In this document: piece by piece, positions 1,418 to 45,938 of the stretch | Position numbering within the stretch: the stretch's first letter is position 1 | How the letters are laid out: each line of letters begins with the position of its first letter | DNA from: Candidatus Yanofskybacteria bacterium | Lineage (GTDB): Bacteria > Patescibacteriota > Minisyncoccia > 2-02-FULL-40-12 > GWA2-44-9 | DNA: 49,689 nt | Assembly (NCBI GenBank): GCA_903830625.1 | Contig: CAIKUK010000009.1 | Coordinates: forward strand, 1-49,689 | Direction: 5' to 3' | Notes under the pieces: model-generated | Told to the model about the DNA's origin: nothing | Databases searched by the model: none | The model's input: the letters and a program-made list of their open reading frames with translations, nothing else | Made by a program: the position numbers and the translations under genes

Positions 1418-2224
1418 TCATGGGTGAGTGTAAGGGCGGATGCCGTTTTTGTAGAAATAACGAATAGCATCGATGATATGCTGTTGAGTTCGACGATTAA
1501 AAATAGCGTCGAGAGCATCAAGCGCGCCGTGCGACTCCCGACGATGATAGTGATACATTTTCGATTCTGGGAAAAATACCACTTGGTATCCATTCTCCCA
1601 GAAGTGGCGCGGCCAGTCAACATCACTCATATATAAATAAAAATGTTCATCCATATATCCGACAGTCTCTATGGCTTTTCTGGAAACCATCAAGGCCGAA
1701 CCCATCAGCCAGTCAACCGGCAGAATTTGGGTCAAATCTTTATCTTTCAGTAAAAATCTATTCAAGATATTTTTTACGAACGGCAGTTTACCCAAAAATG
1801 TTCGGCGGTAAACAATCGTGAATGGCGTATAAAACCGGAAGCATGATTGCTGATTAGAACCATCCATATTCAATAACTGCGGGCCGAGCAGACCGGTTTC
1901 GGGGTGCTTTTTTATATAGACGTATAGTTTTTCAAGGCTTTCGGGTAATGGAATAATATCAGTGTTCATAATGAACATGGCGTCGCCTTTGGCCGCTTTA
2001 AGCCCATGATTAACACCTTTGGTGTAGCCGATATTTTCTTTGAAAGGTAGATAATGAATGTTTGAAAATTCTTCAGTAGCGACAAAGGTCGTGTCGGCAT
2101 CAGTAGCCACGTCAACGACAATTATTTCATGGGAGAATGAATCTGAAATAACACGCTGAAGAGATTTCAAGCACAATCGGAGAAGCGGAGCATTCTTATA
2201 ATTTACAACGACTATGGAAAGCAT
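1418..2224 (-). CDS. GT2 family glycosyltransferase (WbbL-like)
   Basis: MLSIVVVNYK start, IIVVD, ENIGYTKGVN, MNTD, VDWLMGSAL, YMSDVDW; start trimmed to 2224. Confidence 0.9.
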   Translation of the reverse strand: MLSIVVVNYKNAPLLRLCLKSLQRVISDSFSHEIIVVDVATDADTTFVATEEFSNIHYLPFKENIGYTKGVNHGLKAAKGDAMFIMNTDIIPLPESLEKLYVYIKKHPETGLLGPQLLNMDGSNQQSCFRFYTPFTIVYRRTFLGKLPFVKNILNRFLLKDKDLTQILPVDWLMGSALMVSRKAIETVGYMDEHFYLYMSDVDWPRHFWENGYQVVFFPESKMYHYHRRESHGALDALDAIFNRRTQQHIIDAIRYFYKNGIRPYTHP

Positions 2225-30853: not shown

Positions 30854-32740
30854 CTAATAGGATACGTCAACTTGGACCTTATCCTTATTATTTGGGATAG
30901 ACCTGACCCAAAATGGGGACAAATTAACATTGGCCGAAGTAATGCCGGAAATTGAGCCTAGATAAGCCCTCATATCGGCGTCATTCTTGCCCAATAGGTC
31001 GGTAATAATCTTTTGTTGGTCCACTTTGGAATAGCCGGGACCGGTCACATGAACCGTAAAGGATAGGCCGTTTTTGGCTTCATCCCAACGAGGATTGGTG
31101 TAGGTTATGGTTAATTTGTCCAGCAAAACGGTTTTACTTTTTTGAGTATCCACATATTGACTAATCAGAGTGTAAAGGTCGGATTCTTTAAAACCGATGG
31201 TTTTGAGTGAGCCAGCTAGATTAACCTTGAAAGTGCTGGCGGTCGCGTCGGCGGGACTGGTTGAGCTGGGACTGCCGATAACCACCTGACTGTCGTTTAT
31301 GATTTTCAAACCATTGATTTGGGTTTTAAGTTCATCTTGAATGTTAGCGGTAAGCAAAGTCGTCAAAGTTTGTTTGGCCGTATTTAAATCAGATTCCGTT
31401 ACCACGGTGGACTGACCGCTGGTGCCATTAAGGATGGGCGCGGTCGATTGGCCGTAAACTTTTTGATATTTTTCCGTATTCCCCTGTTCTTTAAAAGCCG
31501 GAATAGTAAACAAACCCACCGGGACGTTATATTCCGAACCGGCTTTATCGGCGATAACTTGAACATCCTTACTGCCTGGCACCAGTTTGCCGCTAACAGT
31601 TTTGCCGGCCGGTACCACAATCGAAGTCAAAGTGTGAAAAATATGGTGGTCGGCTGATTCGAAACGCGTGGTCGTTACCAGGGGCTGATCCGTTGTCAGT
31701 TCGTTATAAACCGTAATCGTGCCTCGGGCTTTTTGAGCGACATCCACATGACCCGTGGCGATAAAGTCCTGAGAAACGGTTTTTTGAATATTGAAGAGTT
31801 GGCCCGGTACCGCCATACCCGTTAAACTAACGGCCGAAGTATTATCCGAAGCGAACACGGTCAGACTGAAATCCAGCGGCTGGCTGGCTGGCTTAATTGT
31901 CACTTGGGCTTTCCCGGTCGTAATAAAAACAACCGTGCCCAAAATAATGACCGCCACACAAGCCATGGCAATCAGACCGATGCGATGGGAAGAACGCCTA
32001 GGACGGTCAAATCCGTTGGAAACAAGTTTTGGTTTAAAATTTGATAACGAACGTCTGGTTCGGCTAAACCAGCCCATCGCTTTCGGCGCCAAGTTTGTCT
32101 CCGTTGGAATAGCCCGAGAACCCCAGACACTTTTTATTTCCTGCAAGGCGCGATGTTCAAGAGGTTCATCAGAGAAGTCGCTTTGTCTGATTTCCACCGG
32201 AATAGTTTTTTCACGTCCGCCGTAAACTTTCACGTTGCGCTGGTTTTCAGTTCCAGGCACAAAGATGTCATCCAAGCGTCGGCCATTGGGAGAATCATCA
32301 TCTTCTAAATCATCGCTGGTTTCTTCTTTAACTTGTGCTGTTGATGTTGAAATTGAATCTTCACTCGTGGCTGGCTCGGAATAAAAGTCTTCGATCTGGT
32401 TGACCACGCTGATTGAGCCTGAATCGGCCGGGACCAGTCGAGACGAGCTTGTTTGCCGGCTAACAGATTTCTTGGGGGCCGACGAACGGGCCAGAAGAAC
32501 ATCAAATTTATATTTTTTAGCCAAATCGTTCAGTTCCGGACTGGAACAAAGAAAAGAAACCGATTTTCCGAGACTCTTAGATTCGTCTTTGAGAGAAGCA
32601 AAATGCTCTTCTCTCTTGAAAGCCCGGGCGCTTTTGGGCAGTACGAAAATCACTTCTTCGGCCGAGGTGGATTTGAAGAGGTCTAAAATCTCTTCAAACG
32701 AATCATCCTTGAGAACATTGATAATCTTTGTGGAAGACAC
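30854..32740 (-). CDS. Membrane-anchored protein with baseplate J-like extracellular region
   Basis: N-terminal cytoplasmic domain, TM, AQKARGTITVYN, VIADKAGSEYN, LSPFWV. Confidence 0.7.
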   Translation of the reverse strand: MSSTKIINVLKDDSFEEILDLFKSTSAEEVIFVLPKSARAFKREEHFASLKDESKSLGKSVSFLCSSPELNDLAKKYKFDVLLARSSAPKKSVSRQTSSSRLVPADSGSISVVNQIEDFYSEPATSEDSISTSTAQVKEETSDDLEDDDSPNGRRLDDIFVPGTENQRNVKVYGGREKTIPVEIRQSDFSDEPLEHRALQEIKSVWGSRAIPTETNLAPKAMGWFSRTRRSLSNFKPKLVSNGFDRPRRSSHRIGLIAMACVAVIILGTVVFITTGKAQVTIKPASQPLDFSLTVFASDNTSAVSLTGMAVPGQLFNIQKTVSQDFIATGHVDVAQKARGTITVYNELTTDQPLVTTTRFESADHHIFHTLTSIVVPAGKTVSGKLVPGSKDVQVIADKAGSEYNVPVGLFTIPAFKEQGNTEKYQKVYGQSTAPILNGTSGQSTVVTESDLNTAKQTLTTLLTANIQDELKTQINGLKIINDSQVVIGSPSSTSPADATASTFKVNLAGSLKTIGFKESDLYTLISQYVDTQKSKTVLLDKLTITYTNPRWDEAKNGLSFTVHVTGPGYSKVDQQKIITDLLGKNDADMRAYLGSISGITSANVNLSPFWVRSIPNNKDKVQVDVSY

Positions 32741-33057
32741 CGGGTAGTAGAACTTCGAGTTGCCGCAACAAGATTATGGCTTGAAGAGGTAATCGCGAAG
32801 CCTTCGTTTTAATAATCGTGAACCTTGATTTGTTTTTAAATACCTTTCTCTACGCTTAGCGTCATTTGCATGAAGACAGGCTTCGCAGTAAACAATACTC
32901 CATGATTCGCCATTTTTAGTAGACTTGTTGCGGCCTTGATTATGTTCCAACAATCGCCTCTTCAGATTTTCTGTATATCCTATGTATAATTCCTTATTTT
33001 TATTTTCTAGCACGTAGACGTAATGGAACATAACCCTCTCGAAGTTTCACTACCCGG
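32740..33057. mobile_element. 318-bp TIR element carrying a GIY-YIG nuclease, inserted in a start codon
   Basis: TIR CCGGGTAGTAGAACTTCGAG/CTCGAAGTTTCACTACCCGG (18/20); ACA duplicated at 32737-39 and 33058-60. Confidence 0.8.
32774..33031 (-). CDS. GIY-YIG nuclease (UPF0213/SLX1-like)
   Basis: YVYVL...LYIGYT.NLKRRL.EHN.G, YCEA, A.RRERYLK. Confidence 0.92.
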   Translation of the reverse strand: MFHYVYVLENKNKELYIGYTENLKRRLLEHNQGRNKSTKNGESWSIVYCEACLHANDAKRRERYLKTNQGSRLLKRRLRDYLFKP

Positions 33058-33243: not shown

Positions 33244-33525
33244 ATGCCGAAAGAACGTTGTGATATTGTCAGGCACGGACACCGGAAATACAACATCCGG
33301 CAGACGAGACCAGCGAACCACAGAGTTGATCAACCTGCTCCTTCCCTCGGTAAAGTCATTTTAGTCAGGGACGCGAGGGACATGACCATCCGATTCAAGA
33401 TCCAGTTCGACAAAACGTGCACCGTCGCCGATGATCCAGCCTGGCAGACAAGGGCCACAGAGGCGGTACTTCGAGAAATCGGATTCAGGTTCAAGGACTT
33501 CAAGCCGGTTTCGTGGAGACCCTAG
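33244..33525 (+). CDS. Hypothetical protein
   Basis: SD GGGAG, 93-aa ORF convergent with dus. Confidence 0.45.
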   Translation: MPKERCDIVRHGHRKYNIRQTRPANHRVDQPAPSLGKVILVRDARDMTIRFKIQFDKTCTVADDPAWQTRATEAVLREIGFRFKDFKPVSWRP

Positions 33526-34561
33526 ACGCCAGAGACTCAAGTTTTTCGAGAGTCTCTGGCGCTGTTTTTATTTTCATTAACTTGTTACGAATTTCTTTAG
33601 CACCTTCAAAATCATTGATATATATCTTTATGAACCTTTTCATAACATCAAAGTTTTTGCCCGCACCCCAAAGCTCCACAAAGTTTTGAATATGTTTTTT
33701 GAGTAAGTTTATACGTTCTTCTCGTGTATGTACTTCAGATGGATTAACCCCCACACTCAGTTGGTTGCTGGCTTTGCCATCTGAAGATTCAATCAACTGA
33801 GTGTGGGGGTGAAAAAACCAAGGATTTTGAAATATCCCCCGGCCGACCATAATGCCGTCCAAATCATATTGCTTAGCTTTTTCTATGCCTTCAGTGTAAC
33901 TCATCACATCCCCATTACCGACAACAATAATGCCGGCTGCGTGGCAAAGTCGCGCGGCTTTGCCAATCTCATCCCAATGAGCGGGCGCTTTTGATGCTTC
34001 TTTCATTGTCCGGCCGTGAACAATAATGGCATCCGGTTTGGCTTCAATGATTTTTGATACCCATTCTTCGGTAACAATTGTGTTGTAGCCGATACGGGTT
34101 TTTATTGAAACCGGCAAATTGCCTGCTCCACGTTTGGTTTCAATGATTATTTGTTGAGCTAATTCGGGATTATTAATTAAAGCGGCCCCGGAATTCTGTT
34201 TTAGAATTTTTCTTTCGGGACAACCCATATTGATATCGATACCATCAAAACCTAATTCCGCAATAAGTTTGGCGCATTCATAAAAATGTTCGGGCACGCT
34301 TCCGAATATTTGCGCCACAATCGGCCGTTCGTTTTCTTTAAATGATAAATGAGGCAATAGTTTAGCTTTGCCCGCCATAGCTTTAGCGTCGGCGGGGCCA
34401 GCTTTCATTACATAATTCAAACCATCCGCCGACACAAATTCAGTATACAAAACATCTGGCTTGCCACAATCGCAAACGATCTGCCTAAACGCCATATCGG
34501 TCACATCCGACATCGGCGCCAGGACGAAGAAGGGTTTTTTAAGTTGTTTCCAGAAATTCAT
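33500..34561 (-). CDS. dusB: tRNA-dihydrouridine synthase (with two palindromic inserts)
   Basis: LAPMSDVTD, TEFVS, DINMGCP, SIKTRIG, VHGRT, GNGDV, MVGRG. Confidence 0.9.
   Translation of the reverse strand: MNFWKQLKKPFFVLAPMSDVTDMAFRQIVCDCGKPDVLYTEFVSADGLNYVMKAGPADAKAMAGKAKLLPHLSFKENERPIVAQIFGSVPEHFYECAKLIAELGFDGIDINMGCPERKILKQNSGAALINNPELAQQIIIETKRGAGNLPVSIKTRIGYNTIVTEEWVSKIIEAKPDAIIVHGRTMKEASKAPAHWDEIGKAARLCHAAGIIVVGNGDVMSYTEGIEKAKQYDLDGIMVGRGIFQNPWFFHPHTQLIESSDGKASNQLSVGVNPSEVHTREERINLLKKHIQNFVELWGAGKNFDVMKRFIKIYINDFEGAKEIRNKLMKIKTAPETLEKLESLASRVSTKPA
33747..33810. repeat. 64-bp in-frame palindromic element in dus
   Basis: 17-bp perfect IR ACCCCCACACTCAGTTG/CAACTGAGTGTGGGGGT; encodes HPHTQL...LSVGV. 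Confidence 0.85.
34371..34396. repeat. REP-like hairpin in-frame in dus
   Basis: CCCGCCATAGCTTTAGCGTCGGCGGG; encodes PADAKAMAG. Confidence 0.65.
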
Positions 34562-34576
34562 ATTTATAATTATAAC

Positions 34577-34614
34577 AAAAAGAAAAGGAGCGGCAGCCAG
34601 AAGGCGTACCGCTC
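34577..34614 (-). terminator. Intrinsic terminator of the ncRNA
   Basis: GAGCGG...CCGCTC hairpin followed by CTTTTCTTTTT on minus strand. Confidence 0.7.
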
Positions 34615-34909
34615 AGTATCGAAGGTGTCTGTGCAAGCTCATTTCCTTATCGGGGCCTGCCGGAGGGAATCTCTCCCTTCCGTGTTTAGGCTTATCGGTT
34701 GTTGGAACAACCGATAGTTTCCCTTGGTTTCAGCCGGTGCCCCGACATCCATCCAAGGTACTTAGGTGCCTAGCTGCTCGACCGAAGGCCGAGTCCGCTT
34801 GGTCCTACAACCCCAGCCCGAAAGCTGGTTTAGCCTCTTCCCTCATACGTGGGGCTCCATCCCACTTCCGGGGAATCGCCATTGCTTTCTTCACCAGACA
34901 ACCTCGACG
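34577..34909 (-). ncRNA. Stand-alone structured RNA resembling 23S rRNA domain I core
   Basis: Own promoter and terminator, 5'/3' closing helix, ordered motifs AGAAAGCAA.GCGATTCCC, GGGAAGAG..AAACC, GGGGTTGTAGGAC, CCTAAGTAC, TGAAA, CTAAACAC. Confidence 0.75.
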
Positions 34910-34915
34910 AGAAGT

Positions 34916-34943
34916 ATAGTACCAGACGCAATGTCTATGTCAA
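34916..34943 (-). promoter_or_regulatory. Sigma70 promoter of the ncRNA
   Basis: TTGACA-N16-TACTAT with TGn extended -10. Confidence 0.7.
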
Positions 34944-34947
34944 ATGG

Positions 34948-36783
34948 TTATTCAACTGTGGCTCGGATACGGCGGTTGCCTCCGGAGACGGATTCTTCTT
35001 TAGTGATAGTGATATGGCCGATCTCGCCGGTATGGGTCACATGGGGACCGGCGCAAATCTCGCGGGAGAACCAATTATTATCTTCGCCGACCGTATAGAC
35101 TTTGACTCTCGGCGGATACTTAGCCTTAAAGATACCCGCGGCGCCGGAATCCAAAGCTTCCTGTAAATCCACTTCTTTAAATGTCACCGGCAAATCTTTT
35201 TTCACGATTTCGTTAGCCATATCCTCGGCCTGTTTCAATTCTTCGGGAGTAATTTTTCTGGGAAAATTAAAATCAAATCTCAACCGCTCTACCGTAATAT
35301 CAGCTCCGGCTTGAGCCAATTCCTGGCCTAAGACTTTCCGCAGGGCCGCATCCAGAAGATGAGTCGCCGTATGCAAACGAGTTTTCTTTTTCATTTCTTC
35401 TCTTCTCTCAACTGATAAGTCGGCTTCTTTTACCCCCACACCAAACGAACGATTGCCTTCGGCGCTCCCGACTTCGTTTGTTATGGTGTGGGGGTGAATG
35501 CCATGCCCGCCGAATTTCTTTTCCACGCCGGCGCGAGAAATATTTTTATGAATTTCCATTTCTTTATTAAATCCTTCCTCATCAAATTCATATAGATGAT
35601 TCTCTGCTATTTCTTTAATAACTTCTGGTGGGAATCCATAACTTTGATATAAATCAAAGGCATCCTTGCCTGAAATTTTTTGCCCCACTACAAATGGCTT
35701 TACACTTTGTCCTGGCACCAGTTCTTGAGCCTTGAGGCCAGGATATTTTTTATAGAATTCCTCAAGTCCTTTATCAAGTGTCAGGAGAAACTTAGTAACT
35801 TCTTTGGTAAATTCATTAATTATTGACTGTTGGTTATCTATTAATTCAGAATGACTCTTCCCGTATTCGATAATAATTTTTTGCATGAAATCGGCTATAA
35901 CACTGGTTGGTATTTGGATATTTTTCGAATGGACAAGAAGGCGTCTTATTAATTTTCTTAGTATATAACCCCTCTCCTTATTTGATGGTTGTACCCCATC
36001 AGCAATTAAAAAAACGGAAGCCCTTAGATGGTCGGCTATTATTCTGCCACTTTTTAATTCATCGGGCGCTCCTGCAAATAAAGCAAACGAGAAAACATTA
36101 CTAAACAGGTCAGTTTCAAAAATATTGCTTTTATTCTGAACAACCATCGCCAAGCGTTCCAGGCCCATGCCGGTATCAATGCCTTTTATGGCCAGTGGTT
36201 TCAGTTGTTTGTCGGCGCTTTGATAGTACTCATTAAAAACGATATTCCAAACCTCAAGGTCGTTTACATAAATTTCAGTCGTCGGACCACAAGGACCTTC
36301 CTCCCCGGTCGGTCCCCAAAAATTATCCTCTCGGCCAGCTCTTTTTATTTTCAATGCCGGATCAATCGATTGCCATATCTTTTCCGATTCTTCATCCGCT
36401 GGCACTCCTTCTTCGCCTTGAAAAACCGAAACGTAATCAATGGTCAGACCCATTTCTTTGGTAATGAATTCGTGGGCATATTCAATGGCTTCCTTTTTCC
36501 AATAATCTCCGAACGAGAAATTACCGAGCATTTCAAAGAAAGTCAGGTGTGAATCATCTCCCACCTCGTCAATATCCGAAGTGCGCAAACATTTTTGAAT
36601 AGAAACGACATTTTTGTCCGGCGCTTCGGCCGGGTTTATATAATATGGCTTGAATTGTTGCATGCCGGCCGTTGTAAACAAAACCGACGGGTCGGTCGGC
36701 AACAACGACGAAGACGGCACCACGGCGTGCCCTTTTGATTCAAAAAATTTAATAAACCTCTCCCGTATTTCCTTCTGAGTCAT
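34948..36783 (-). CDS. alaS: Alanine--tRNA ligase (short form, no C-Ala domain)
   Basis: FTTAGMQQFK, HLTFFEMLGNFSFGDY, GPCGP, DTGMGLER, HTATHL, CAGPH. Confidence 0.97.
   Translation of the reverse strand: MTQKEIRERFIKFFESKGHAVVPSSSLLPTDPSVLFTTAGMQQFKPYYINPAEAPDKNVVSIQKCLRTSDIDEVGDDSHLTFFEMLGNFSFGDYWKKEAIEYAHEFITKEMGLTIDYVSVFQGEEGVPADEESEKIWQSIDPALKIKRAGREDNFWGPTGEEGPCGPTTEIYVNDLEVWNIVFNEYYQSADKQLKPLAIKGIDTGMGLERLAMVVQNKSNIFETDLFSNVFSFALFAGAPDELKSGRIIADHLRASVFLIADGVQPSNKERGYILRKLIRRLLVHSKNIQIPTSVIADFMQKIIIEYGKSHSELIDNQQSIINEFTKEVTKFLLTLDKGLEEFYKKYPGLKAQELVPGQSVKPFVVGQKISGKDAFDLYQSYGFPPEVIKEIAENHLYEFDEEGFNKEMEIHKNISRAGVEKKFGGHGIHPHTITNEVGSAEGNRSFGVGVKEADLSVERREEMKKKTRLHTATHLLDAALRKVLGQELAQAGADITVERLRFDFNFPRKITPEELKQAEDMANEIVKKDLPVTFKEVDLQEALDSGAAGIFKAKYPPRVKVYTVGEDNNWFSREICAGPHVTHTGEIGHITITKEESVSGGNRRIRATVE
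35432..35495. repeat. 64-bp in-frame palindromic element in alaS
   Basis: 12-bp perfect IR ACCCCCACACCA/TGGTGTGGGGGT; encodes HPHTIT...FGVGV; same ends and length as the dus element. Confidence 0.85.
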
Positions 36784-44111: not shown

Positions 44112-44187
44112 TGGGGGGATTAGAGAGAGTTGAACTCTCGCCCGCAGTTCCACAAACTGCTGTGCTAACCGTTACACCATAATCCCC
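44112..44187 (-). tRNA. tRNA-His (GUG)
   Basis: G-1:C73 8-bp acceptor, GCAGT-TTGTGGA-ACTGC anticodon arm, GAGAG-TTCAACT-CTCTC T arm, CCA end. Confidence 0.93.
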
Positions 44188-45775: not shown

Positions 45776-45847
45776 CCGCCCGTAGTTCAATGGATAGAAC
45801 TGGAGATTTCTAAACTCCAAATGTAGGTCCGATTCCTACCGGGCGGA
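45776..45847 (+). tRNA. tRNA-Arg (UCU), atypical
   Basis: CCGCCCG/CGGGCGG acceptor, loop TTTCTAA, T-loop TCCGATT, no encoded CCA. Confidence 0.8.
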
Positions 45848-45864: not shown

Positions 45865-45938
45865 CGGGCCGGAGTATGCCGGTAGTACGCCTGATTTGGG
45901 ATCAGGTAGACCGAGTTCGATTCTCGGCGGCCCGACCA
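45865..45938 (+). tRNA. tRNA-Pro (UGG)
   Basis: CGGGCCG/CGGCCCG acceptor, CCTGA-TTTGGGA-TCAGG, GTTCGATTC, ACCA end. Confidence 0.9.

Follow-up and report, generated by a model that had tools for sequence, protein, structure and literature searches.

The closest described relative of the RNA reported here is domain I of the 23S rRNA (Rfam RF02541): its six helices occur there in identical order, joined by the same junction strands, and a covariance model of the RNA (R1, described below) matches real 23S at up to about 95 bits. Other known systems resemble it in part. Split rRNA genes, as found in organelles and in IVS-processed 23S, provide a piece of the LSU as a separate molecule, and the main gene lacks that piece. 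The leaders of ribosomal protein (r-protein) operons likewise display rRNA features outside the ribosome, presumably bound by a ribosome-binding protein, but each is a short cis-acting element within the 5' UTR of the operon under its control, and the likeness to rRNA is usually convergent. 6S RNA and CsrB/RsmZ are abundant and stable decoys that imitate a nucleic-acid ligand and thereby sequester a protein.

The element analysed here lies in a stretch of 49,689 nucleotides from a Candidatus Yanofskybacteria genome (hereafter, the window), and it departs from each of these systems. In contrast to 23S rRNA, it has a gene of its own between alaS and dus and measures ~290 nt instead of ~2900; it lacks the H16-H20 arm, the H11 loop and the other domains; a terminal helix and 3' hairpins have been added; and it scores below any Rfam LSU threshold. 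Unlike the carriers of split rRNAs, three relatives with a mini-domain-I RNA have complete 23S genes. Unlike the r-protein leaders, it consists of a 200-nt homologous subdomain with its own terminator and no adjacent r-protein gene. The decoys act by the mechanism that we favour, but they have no sequence or structural relation to the element, no Rfam match links them to it, and the ligand imitated here would be an rRNA subdomain. A search of the full-text literature, with supplementary files outside its reach, returned no description of a free-standing rRNA-domain paralogue in bacteria. We are confident that the element is a free-standing gene for a structured ncRNA descended from the core of 23S domain I. 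The complete reading, in which this 23S-derived gene acts as a trans mimic titrating a protein, is the best explanation that we can offer, and we give it a probability of roughly 0.45.

The minus strand of the alaS-dus spacer encodes a structured RNA whose ends pair, preceded by a promoter and followed by a terminator. In the order of transcription, the features are:

34948 to 36783, minus strand: alaS, the upstream neighbour (Pfam tRNA-synt_2c, E=1.7e-117)
34916 to 34943, minus strand: promoter, with -35 TTGACA at 34943-34938 and -10 TACTAT at 34921-34916
34577 to 34908, minus strand: predicted primary transcript of ~330 nt, from promoter, fold and alignment, with contigs of RNA libraries inside it
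34895 to 34908, minus strand: 5' strand of P1, a new terminal helix that is no part of 23S (14 pairs, 5 covarying)
34876 to 34894, minus strand: purine-rich single strand GUGAAGAAAGCAAUGGCGA, with invariant columns, aligning with the strand before H11 of real 23S
34838 to 34875, minus strand: H11-like stem, UUCCC 34875-34871 with GGGAA 34842-34838
34688 to 34836, minus strand: H14-like long-range helix, AGGC 34836-34833 with GCCU 34691-34688
34808 to 34832, minus strand: H13-like hairpin (9 pairs, 3-4 covarying)
34763 to 34807, minus strand: H16-like stem with a short capping hairpin that stands for the whole H16-H20 arm of 23S
34722 to 34758, minus strand: H21-like hairpin (7 pairs, 6 covarying)
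34693 to 34716, minus strand: H22-like hairpin (5 model pairs, 3-4 covarying; 10 bp in the window)
34633 to 34682, minus strand: two 3' hairpins without a 23S counterpart, A (34682-34661) and B (34660-34633)
34618 to 34631, minus strand: 3' strand of P1, pairing with 34908-34895
34577 to 34614, minus strand: intrinsic terminator, a G+C-rich hairpin (34614-34588) and a U-run (34586-34577), from the fold
33500 to 34561, minus strand: dus, the downstream neighbour (Pfam Dus, E=2.9e-58)

The unit fits closely between its neighbours: it begins 4 nt past the alaS stop codon (34950-34948, minus strand) and finishes 16 nt ahead of the dus ATG (34561, minus strand). A preliminary description of this DNA had proposed a TTGACA-N16-TGnTACTAT promoter, paired RNA ends, an intrinsic terminator and the lack of any credible ORF, and all of these withstood the analysis. 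The promoter motif is present on the minus strand with a spacer of 16 nt and a TG at 34924-34923, which places the predicted start near 34908. Such sites are not above chance when taken alone (1 in 1.5 kb, against 1.8 +/- 1.3 in shuffled sequences); a TTGAC(A/G/C) and TAnnnT pair stands at the same distance ahead of the first helix in all four homologues, window included. The ends of the RNA core (P1 to P1, 34618-34908 on the minus strand, ~290 nt) pair as GUCGAGGUUGUCUG (34908-34895) with CAGACACCUUCGAU (34631-34618), and of these 14 pairs 5 are altered on both sides across four sequences, with 96% of cells paired. The terminator hairpin was missed by a simple terminator scan and found by the fold, and a hairpin with a U-run follows P1 in 4/4 homologues. 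No ORF of at least 40 aa occurs on the minus strand within 34562-34947, and the two plus-strand ORFs that overlap the region are antisense to the RNA. A 339-nt stretch folds with an MFE of -143.7 kcal/mol (z = -4.8), and none of 100 shuffles folded equally well.

The RNA belongs to no family described in Rfam, as had been supposed. At the gathering score, Rfam 15 finds only three tRNAs in the whole window and nothing on the element; at E<=10 on 34450-35050 it returns four noise matches of 11-16 bits, none of them to LSU; and the gathering score of RF02541 (50 bits) is not reached. No Rfam model of tmRNA, 6S, SRP or RNase P RNA matches the element. RNase P RNA, suggested by the size, the pairing of the ends and a promoter of the element's own, was rejected since the RNase P RNA of this genome is encoded on contig C24 (108 bits). 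The element is flanked by alaS and dus and by no other 23S domain. Neither does it occupy the 5' UTR of a regulated r-protein operon: its neighbours are other genes, and the nearest r-protein genes, those of S13 and S4, lie several kb off, beyond dus and an ORF of 628 aa. The genome of the window (598 kb in 24 contigs, marker-gene completeness 100%, 16S present) contains no LSU match by Rfam and no trace of one by BLAST with the 23S of relatives.

Homologues of the element are few and diverged. BLAST against 60 relatives gave just two matches, of 42 nt each and neither in an rRNA gene, and a strict sequence pattern added a third homologue, so that the window type comprises the genome of the window, G007, G018 and G069. 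Every homologue has a -35/-10 pair, a terminal helix about 7 nt further on, the same ordered motifs, and a terminator hairpin with its U-run; this geometry of promoter, P1 and terminator is kept in 4/4 window-type RNAs. All four share a neighbourhood running from alaS through dus to a 620-aa ORF, but their immediate neighbours differ. The gene downstream of the RNA is dus in two genomes, an NYN gene in one (G007, where it lies between the RNA and dus) and an IS200-like transposase gene in one (G069, likewise before dus). In G018, two small ORFs lie between alaS and the RNA, and the terminator ends about 20 nt before the dus ATG. The remaining neighbours of window-type RNAs are small membrane ORFs.

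The window type is rare and patchy, occurring in 4/105 genomes of the order and in 1/6 of the genus. In the other five genomes of the window's genus, dus is present and the element was not found: alaS and dus abut with no spacer in G003 and G004, a gap of 390 nt without an R1 match separates them in G005, and an NYN gene occupies the site of the element in G001 and G002. At the corresponding place before dus, G001 has a different and smaller promoter-hairpin-terminator unit.

The RNA is under purifying selection and is not decaying, as the preliminary description had argued. First, identity among the four window-type genomes is 25-43% at four-fold degenerate sites in alaS and dus, near the random level, whereas the RNA reaches 54-72% and contains long invariant blocks. 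Second, pairing is maintained through sequence change in every helix of the element. In the full-length alignment of four RNAs, 94.8% of cells are paired and 24/62 pairs have changed on both sides (shuffles 0/500; 43-47% paired when the partner is slid by one column), and in the core alignment of eight stand-alone RNAs the figures are 95.5% and 22/37 pairs (shuffles 0/500; 48-51% when slid), counts that come from few sequences, with alignment A3 fitted to the model, and kin sequences may outdo shuffles even without structure. An rRNA pseudogene would show no constraint on sequence or on pairing, and this is not what was found.

The origin of the RNA was traced with R1, a covariance model of 207 positions and 37 pairs built from the core of the four window-type RNAs only, whose E-values are approximate because its calibration was shortened. 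Across the 105 genomes of the order, R1 scores the four window-type RNAs at 172-195 bits, and its scores for genuine 23S genes are 15 and 62 bits; two further matches, in G019 and G037, are weak and short. In the class sample, 36/151 genomes match at E<=1e-4. Of the 29 loci examined there besides the window's (the matches of 6 further genomes were left out), 28 are true 23S by Rfam, where the LSU match starts at model position 1, and the exception, L046 in G234, is not a 23S gene by Rfam. The class-level matches to real 23S domain I in other families extend over the full length of the model at 52-82 bits. In the phylum sample, 21/151 genomes match at E<=1e-6, with a top score of 93.6 bits, and the best 5 new matches, to which the check was confined (12 others were left out), are all 23S by conserved 23S motifs on both flanks. 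Seventy-five unrelated metagenome contigs, taken from the listed matches of a motif scan, gave 74 R1 matches of 40-95 bits, and the full-length ones measure about 250-310 nt, the size expected for real 23S. The 80 loci examined among the listed matches of the metagenome motif scan are nearly all ordinary 23S of other bacteria; the rest are chance matches in coding DNA, and no new stand-alone member was among them. Closer to home the signal is fainter. With filters off, the best R1 match in the 23S of the window's family and of G105 is domain I, at 12-23 bits, and BLAST of the element against the 23S of relatives gives only weak collinear matches.

Since a model made from four RNAs picks up domain I of real 23S with 40-95 bits, the element is a trimmed paralogue of its H11-H14/H16/H21-H22 core. 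The matches across order, class, phylum and metagenomes identify its six helices, with their junction strands, as the counterparts of H11, H13, H14, H16, H21 and H22. The order of 23S-like motifs reported earlier is thereby borne out computationally, as is the replacement of roughly the H18-H20 segment by a short hairpin: the H16-H20 arm is reduced to one, and the match to R1 is 172-213 nt long in the stand-alone type compared with about 250-310 nt in real 23S. Along with this arm, the RNA has lost all of 23S that lies 5' of H11 or 3' of H14. The molecule is instead closed by new parts, namely the 14-bp terminal helix and two 3' hairpins, and the conserved loop of 23S H11 has been swapped for a lineage-specific hairpin (about 34866-34848, read from the sequences). 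The purine-rich strand GUGAAGAAAGCAAUGGCGA falls within R1 model positions 1-20, which align to 23S. The H14-like helix encloses the equivalents of H13, H16, H21 and H22, and a conserved GCAC(A/G)G follows hairpins A and B and leads to P1.

Two details of the earlier structural proposal did not survive. The AGGC/GCCU pairing of H14 had been listed as a pairing kept with changed sequence; it is an ordinary 23S variant, and because many genuine 23S genes carry the same form it is not special to the window RNA. Among the eight stand-alone RNAs, GC and CG forms of H14 are divided 4:4. The pseudoknot proposed from TCGGGGC and GCCCCGA (UCGGGGC at 34745-34739 with GCCCCGA at 34656-34650) was rejected for lack of conservation: it exists in the window sequence only, and homologues have short or unrelated loops there. 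By our estimate, one complementary 7-mer per ~290 nt is expected by chance.

Further stand-alone RNAs of this kind exist in other CPR lineages. A search for the exact shortened-arm pattern in one genome per species (185,579 species) matched 7 stretches: three known window-type sequences, a Paenibacillus 23S with an NN scaffold gap, and the loci L017 (G105), L021 (G106) and L022 (G107). The last three are free-standing LSU fragments of CPR lineages, followed by a terminator and then by protein genes, with Rfam LSU scores of 94-223 bits over model positions of about 37-483; L017 and L021 have a common gene order, tgt ... RNA ... uvrB. The R1 match in G234, L046, is preceded by a TTGACA/TATATT promoter and closed by a helix of its own, matches nothing in Rfam, and is of a type found in 1/12 genomes of its family. 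R1 scores these four RNAs at 59-70 bits. They resemble the window RNA in being free-standing, bounded by a terminator and shortened in the H16-H20 arm, which is trimmed in all 8 stand-alone RNAs. They differ from it in their loci and in their type of H14 pairing, and L017, L021 and L022 also differ in reaching an Rfam LSU score and in retaining H5-H10 and the H11 loop. Together with the window type they make up a small, patchy class of four subtypes (window type, G234, G105/G106 and G107), in which the rRNA core is all that is common. Descent of all these RNAs from a single ancestor is weakly supported by sequence: in a tree of 151 core columns, the 8 stand-alone RNAs are set apart from 29 real 23S by one bipartition (SH-like 0.71), which has one diagnostic column and comes from an alignment fitted to R1. 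A pattern scan of viral contigs for mini-domain-I RNAs gave no match.

Relatives of the element are present in RNA libraries. Four assembled runs were compared, as contigs and not as raw reads, with positions 34300-35200 (901 nt). In three metatranscriptome runs, from three studies, one contig each lies wholly inside the element at about 93-97% identity:

34631 to 34883: RNA contig of run X4, 252 nt (7 mismatches, 3 gaps)
34637 to 34834: RNA contig of run X10, 200 nt (11 mismatches, 2 gaps)
34680 to 34840: RNA contig of run X5, 170 nt (6 mismatches, 1 gap)

These contigs include parts of the element that are not rRNA, so they represent relatives of the element and not 23S. Those of X4 and X10 end at most 6 nt apart (34631 and 34637), near the 3' strand of P1 and without loose ends, and a DNA contig from X2 (34470-34667) continues across this point; this is a weak hint. 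The flanks of the element are not covered at matching identity in X4, X5 or X10, an absence of cover that is no evidence in itself, and the short pieces found on dus (34485-34524) are less than 90% identical, have loose ends and come from other organisms. Contigs reveal neither the ends nor the strand nor the level of a transcript, and RNA libraries can hold DNA. That the RNA is a transcription unit of its own, as had been proposed, is supported by the geometry of promoter, P1 and terminator kept in 4/4 homologues and by the changing gene downstream.

What such an RNA might do is suggested by the ribosome. PMC13372681 (2026) locates bL28 and bL35, together with the H13 and H21 tips, at the E-site pocket of the E. 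coli 50S, and PMC9935924 describes contacts of H11 with H37 and of H21 with H51 in the course of assembly, with bL9 and bL28 binding late. Given these descriptions of the pocket and of the assembly contacts, the retention of an RNA-only domain I core leads us to favour, tentatively, a trans-acting structural mimic of this part of the 50S that titrates a protein of the same RNA surface. In this scheme the RNA would imitate, in trans, the H11-H22 part of the 50S and would titrate, by binding it, a protein whose usual target is this surface. Candidates are the late-binding r-proteins bL28 and bL35, and an assembly or quality-control factor; the titration might tune ribosome biogenesis or protect the ribosome. 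A decoy for ribosomal proteins, assembly factors or ribotoxins had been named in the preliminary description purely as an example. It is conceivable, though somewhat doubtful, that mini-domain-I RNAs adopt the fold of their counterpart in the 50S and assemble into an abundant RNP of their own with the proteins that dock there.

Several observations weigh against such a mimic. The arms deleted from the RNA are just those with the primary r-protein sites, bound by the early assembly proteins; H18-H20 binds uL4 and uL24. The tips of the H13- and H21-like hairpins vary freely among homologues, which speaks against recognition of the tips by a partner. Genes for bL28 and bL35 occur in RNA-bearing genomes and in a genome without the RNA, so there is no correlation; the bL28 of G000 is divergent but present. 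The Rfam LSU model misses the window RNA even at E<=10. The RNA is also clearly dispensable, given its occurrence in 4/105 genomes of the order and 1/6 of the genus and the adjacency of alaS and dus in two congeners.

If the titrating mimic is correct, several consequences follow. It would represent a trans-acting imitation of rRNA in ultra-small cells, which would buffer or gate late ribosome assembly or shield the ribosome from a factor or a toxin. A bacterial RNA homologous to an rRNA domain, and copied from it, would then serve in regulation, a case of which we found no description in the full-text literature. The duplication of an rRNA subdomain, its trimming and its maintenance as a gene of its own would be a route to ncRNA likewise undescribed for bacteria in that literature. 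CPR bacteria have reduced ribosomes and few assembly factors. The element provides a naturally minimised version of the domain-I core and a handle on ribosome biogenesis in these bacteria. In practical terms, rRNA-like matches in MAGs are not all fragments or misassemblies.

A reading without any ribosomal partner is an unlikely competitor: the domain-I core would have been kept for its robust folding, and the function, perhaps in another RNP, as a sensor or in catalysis, would reside in P1, the H11 hairpin, the 3' hairpins and the purine-rich strand. The tips that touch proteins in the ribosome vary, the arms with the primary r-protein sites are gone, and, within the window type, the new peripheral elements are conserved, GCAC(A/G)G and hairpin B among them. 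However, the 23S junction strands are the most conserved positions, and the peripheral additions differ wholly among the four subtypes, which have the rRNA core alone in common.

We consider it improbable that the RNA is a cis-acting leader or attenuator, i.e., that it supplies a promoter for dus and the genes downstream and controls them by read-through of the terminator, perhaps by binding Dus or another RNA-modifying enzyme. The short distance from terminator to dus ATG (16 nt in the window, about 20 nt in G018) and the smaller unit before dus in G001 would fit such a role. Yet the RNA is fully conserved where an NYN gene (G007) or an IS200-like transposase gene (G069) intervenes before dus, the other subtypes precede unrelated genes (a distant uvrB for L017 and L021, an uncharacterised ORF in G234), and two congeners have alaS and dus without a spacer. 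The known substrate of Dus is tRNA, which the RNA does not resemble.

It is highly unlikely that the RNA is a part of the ribosome supplied in trans, built into the 50S either as a split piece or as a domain-I module, extra or alternative. This idea draws on the 24 contigs of the window genome, which lack a 23S and leave its own domain I beyond inspection, and on the unusually divergent or expanded domain I of the 23S in carrier lineages, where R1 scores 12-23 bits or nothing. Most genomes of the family, however, have a divergent 23S and no RNA, and the ends of the RNA pair with each other and offer no strands to the rest of the 23S. A piece of a split rRNA, which the preliminary description had named as the reading to adopt if the 23S of the genome lacked this region, is rejected for the relatives in which it can be tested. 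G007 (a window-type genome), G105 and G234 have an LSU match over model positions 1-2925 beside the stand-alone RNA, and the whole of H11-H22 is present in the 23S sequences of G007 and G105 on reading; G018, G069, G106, G107 and the window genome have assemblies without a full-length 23S.

There is scarcely any likelihood that the RNA is a neutral relic, left over from a duplicated or transferred 23S gene and transcribed by chance: the patchy distribution with repeated loss and the intrinsic structure of rRNA-like sequence would fit one, but the RNA keeps its invariant blocks where adjacent neutral sites are saturated, 24/62 of its pairs have changed with compensation, the new closing helix, promoter and terminator are conserved in 4/4 homologues, and the same arm has been trimmed in all 8 stand-alone RNAs.

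In the lineages that carry mini-domain-I RNAs (stand-alone RNAs with a trimmed 23S rRNA domain I), domain I of the 23S rRNA is itself divergent or expanded (L006-L008, L024 and L212, from the family of the window genome, f1, and from G105 and G234, which have other subtypes of the RNA); the G105 23S contains an insertion of about 150 nt within helix H13. R1, the covariance model built from the core of the four window-type RNAs, gave 12-23 bits or no match on the 23S of these lineages (family f1, G105, G234), and 40-95 bits where the 23S came from a different CPR family or from an unrelated bacterium. The mini-domain-I RNA looks more canonical than domain I of its host's own 23S. No part of a 23S was found across the 24 contigs of the window genome, despite 100% marker completeness. 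Its 16S lies on another contig:

G000:C8:6966-9170, 16S rRNA gene, 2205 nt

Since this gene spans 2205 nt for a model of 1533 positions, it includes about 670 nt of inserted sequence.

The gap between alaS and dus, where the element (the window-type mini-domain-I RNA) resides, is a hot spot for insertions. It has received an IS200-like transposase in G069 and an NYN-domain gene (PF01936) in G007, G001 and G002, three genomes that belong to two genera. Next to the NYN gene, G007 has the element and G001 has another, smaller RNA unit, but G002, a congener of the window genome like G001, has no RNA unit there (L037).

L198 5633-6184 (G007), NYN-domain gene in the gap; also in L040 (G001) and L037 (G002)
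L040 (G001) about 1607-1800, minus strand, promoter-hairpin-terminator unit ahead of dus, in a congener without the element

The G001 unit has a promoter (TTGACC-17-TATAAT), a region of about 95 nt whose ends pair as CATAGCC/GGCTATG, and a terminator immediately preceding the dus ATG. Its architecture is that of the element at one third of the size, and the R1 search found no match to it; the unit may have arisen by collapse of the element or be an unrelated sRNA.

On the other side of dus lie a small protein gene and a long ORF, and the window's only Rfam matches at the gathering score are three tRNA genes:

32774-33031, minus strand, small GIY-YIG protein gene (85 aa), just downstream of dus
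30854-32740, minus strand, ORF of 628 aa, downstream of dus
44115-44186, minus strand, tRNA gene
45776-45847, plus strand, tRNA gene
45865-45935, plus strand, tRNA gene

The 628-aa ORF has no Pfam match and is conserved at this position beyond dus in each of the four genomes with a window-type RNA.

Another small free-standing rRNA-like piece may be present in G020, 68 kb away from the 23S of that genome and with no ribosomal protein gene seen adjoining it:

L011 (G020:C1:461989-462074), isolated LSU match of 86 nt, model positions 2128-2213, 51 bits

A Paenibacillus 23S record (L018 2442-2615) matched the shortened-arm pattern because NN fills the position of the H16-H20 arm; it was rejected, the NN being a scaffold gap and not biology. 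In G041, long AT-rich direct repeats interrupt a genuine 23S gene or lie on either side of it (L032 1350-1950): the same stretch of about 45 nt stands both before and after a domain-I/II segment, which suggests intervening sequences.
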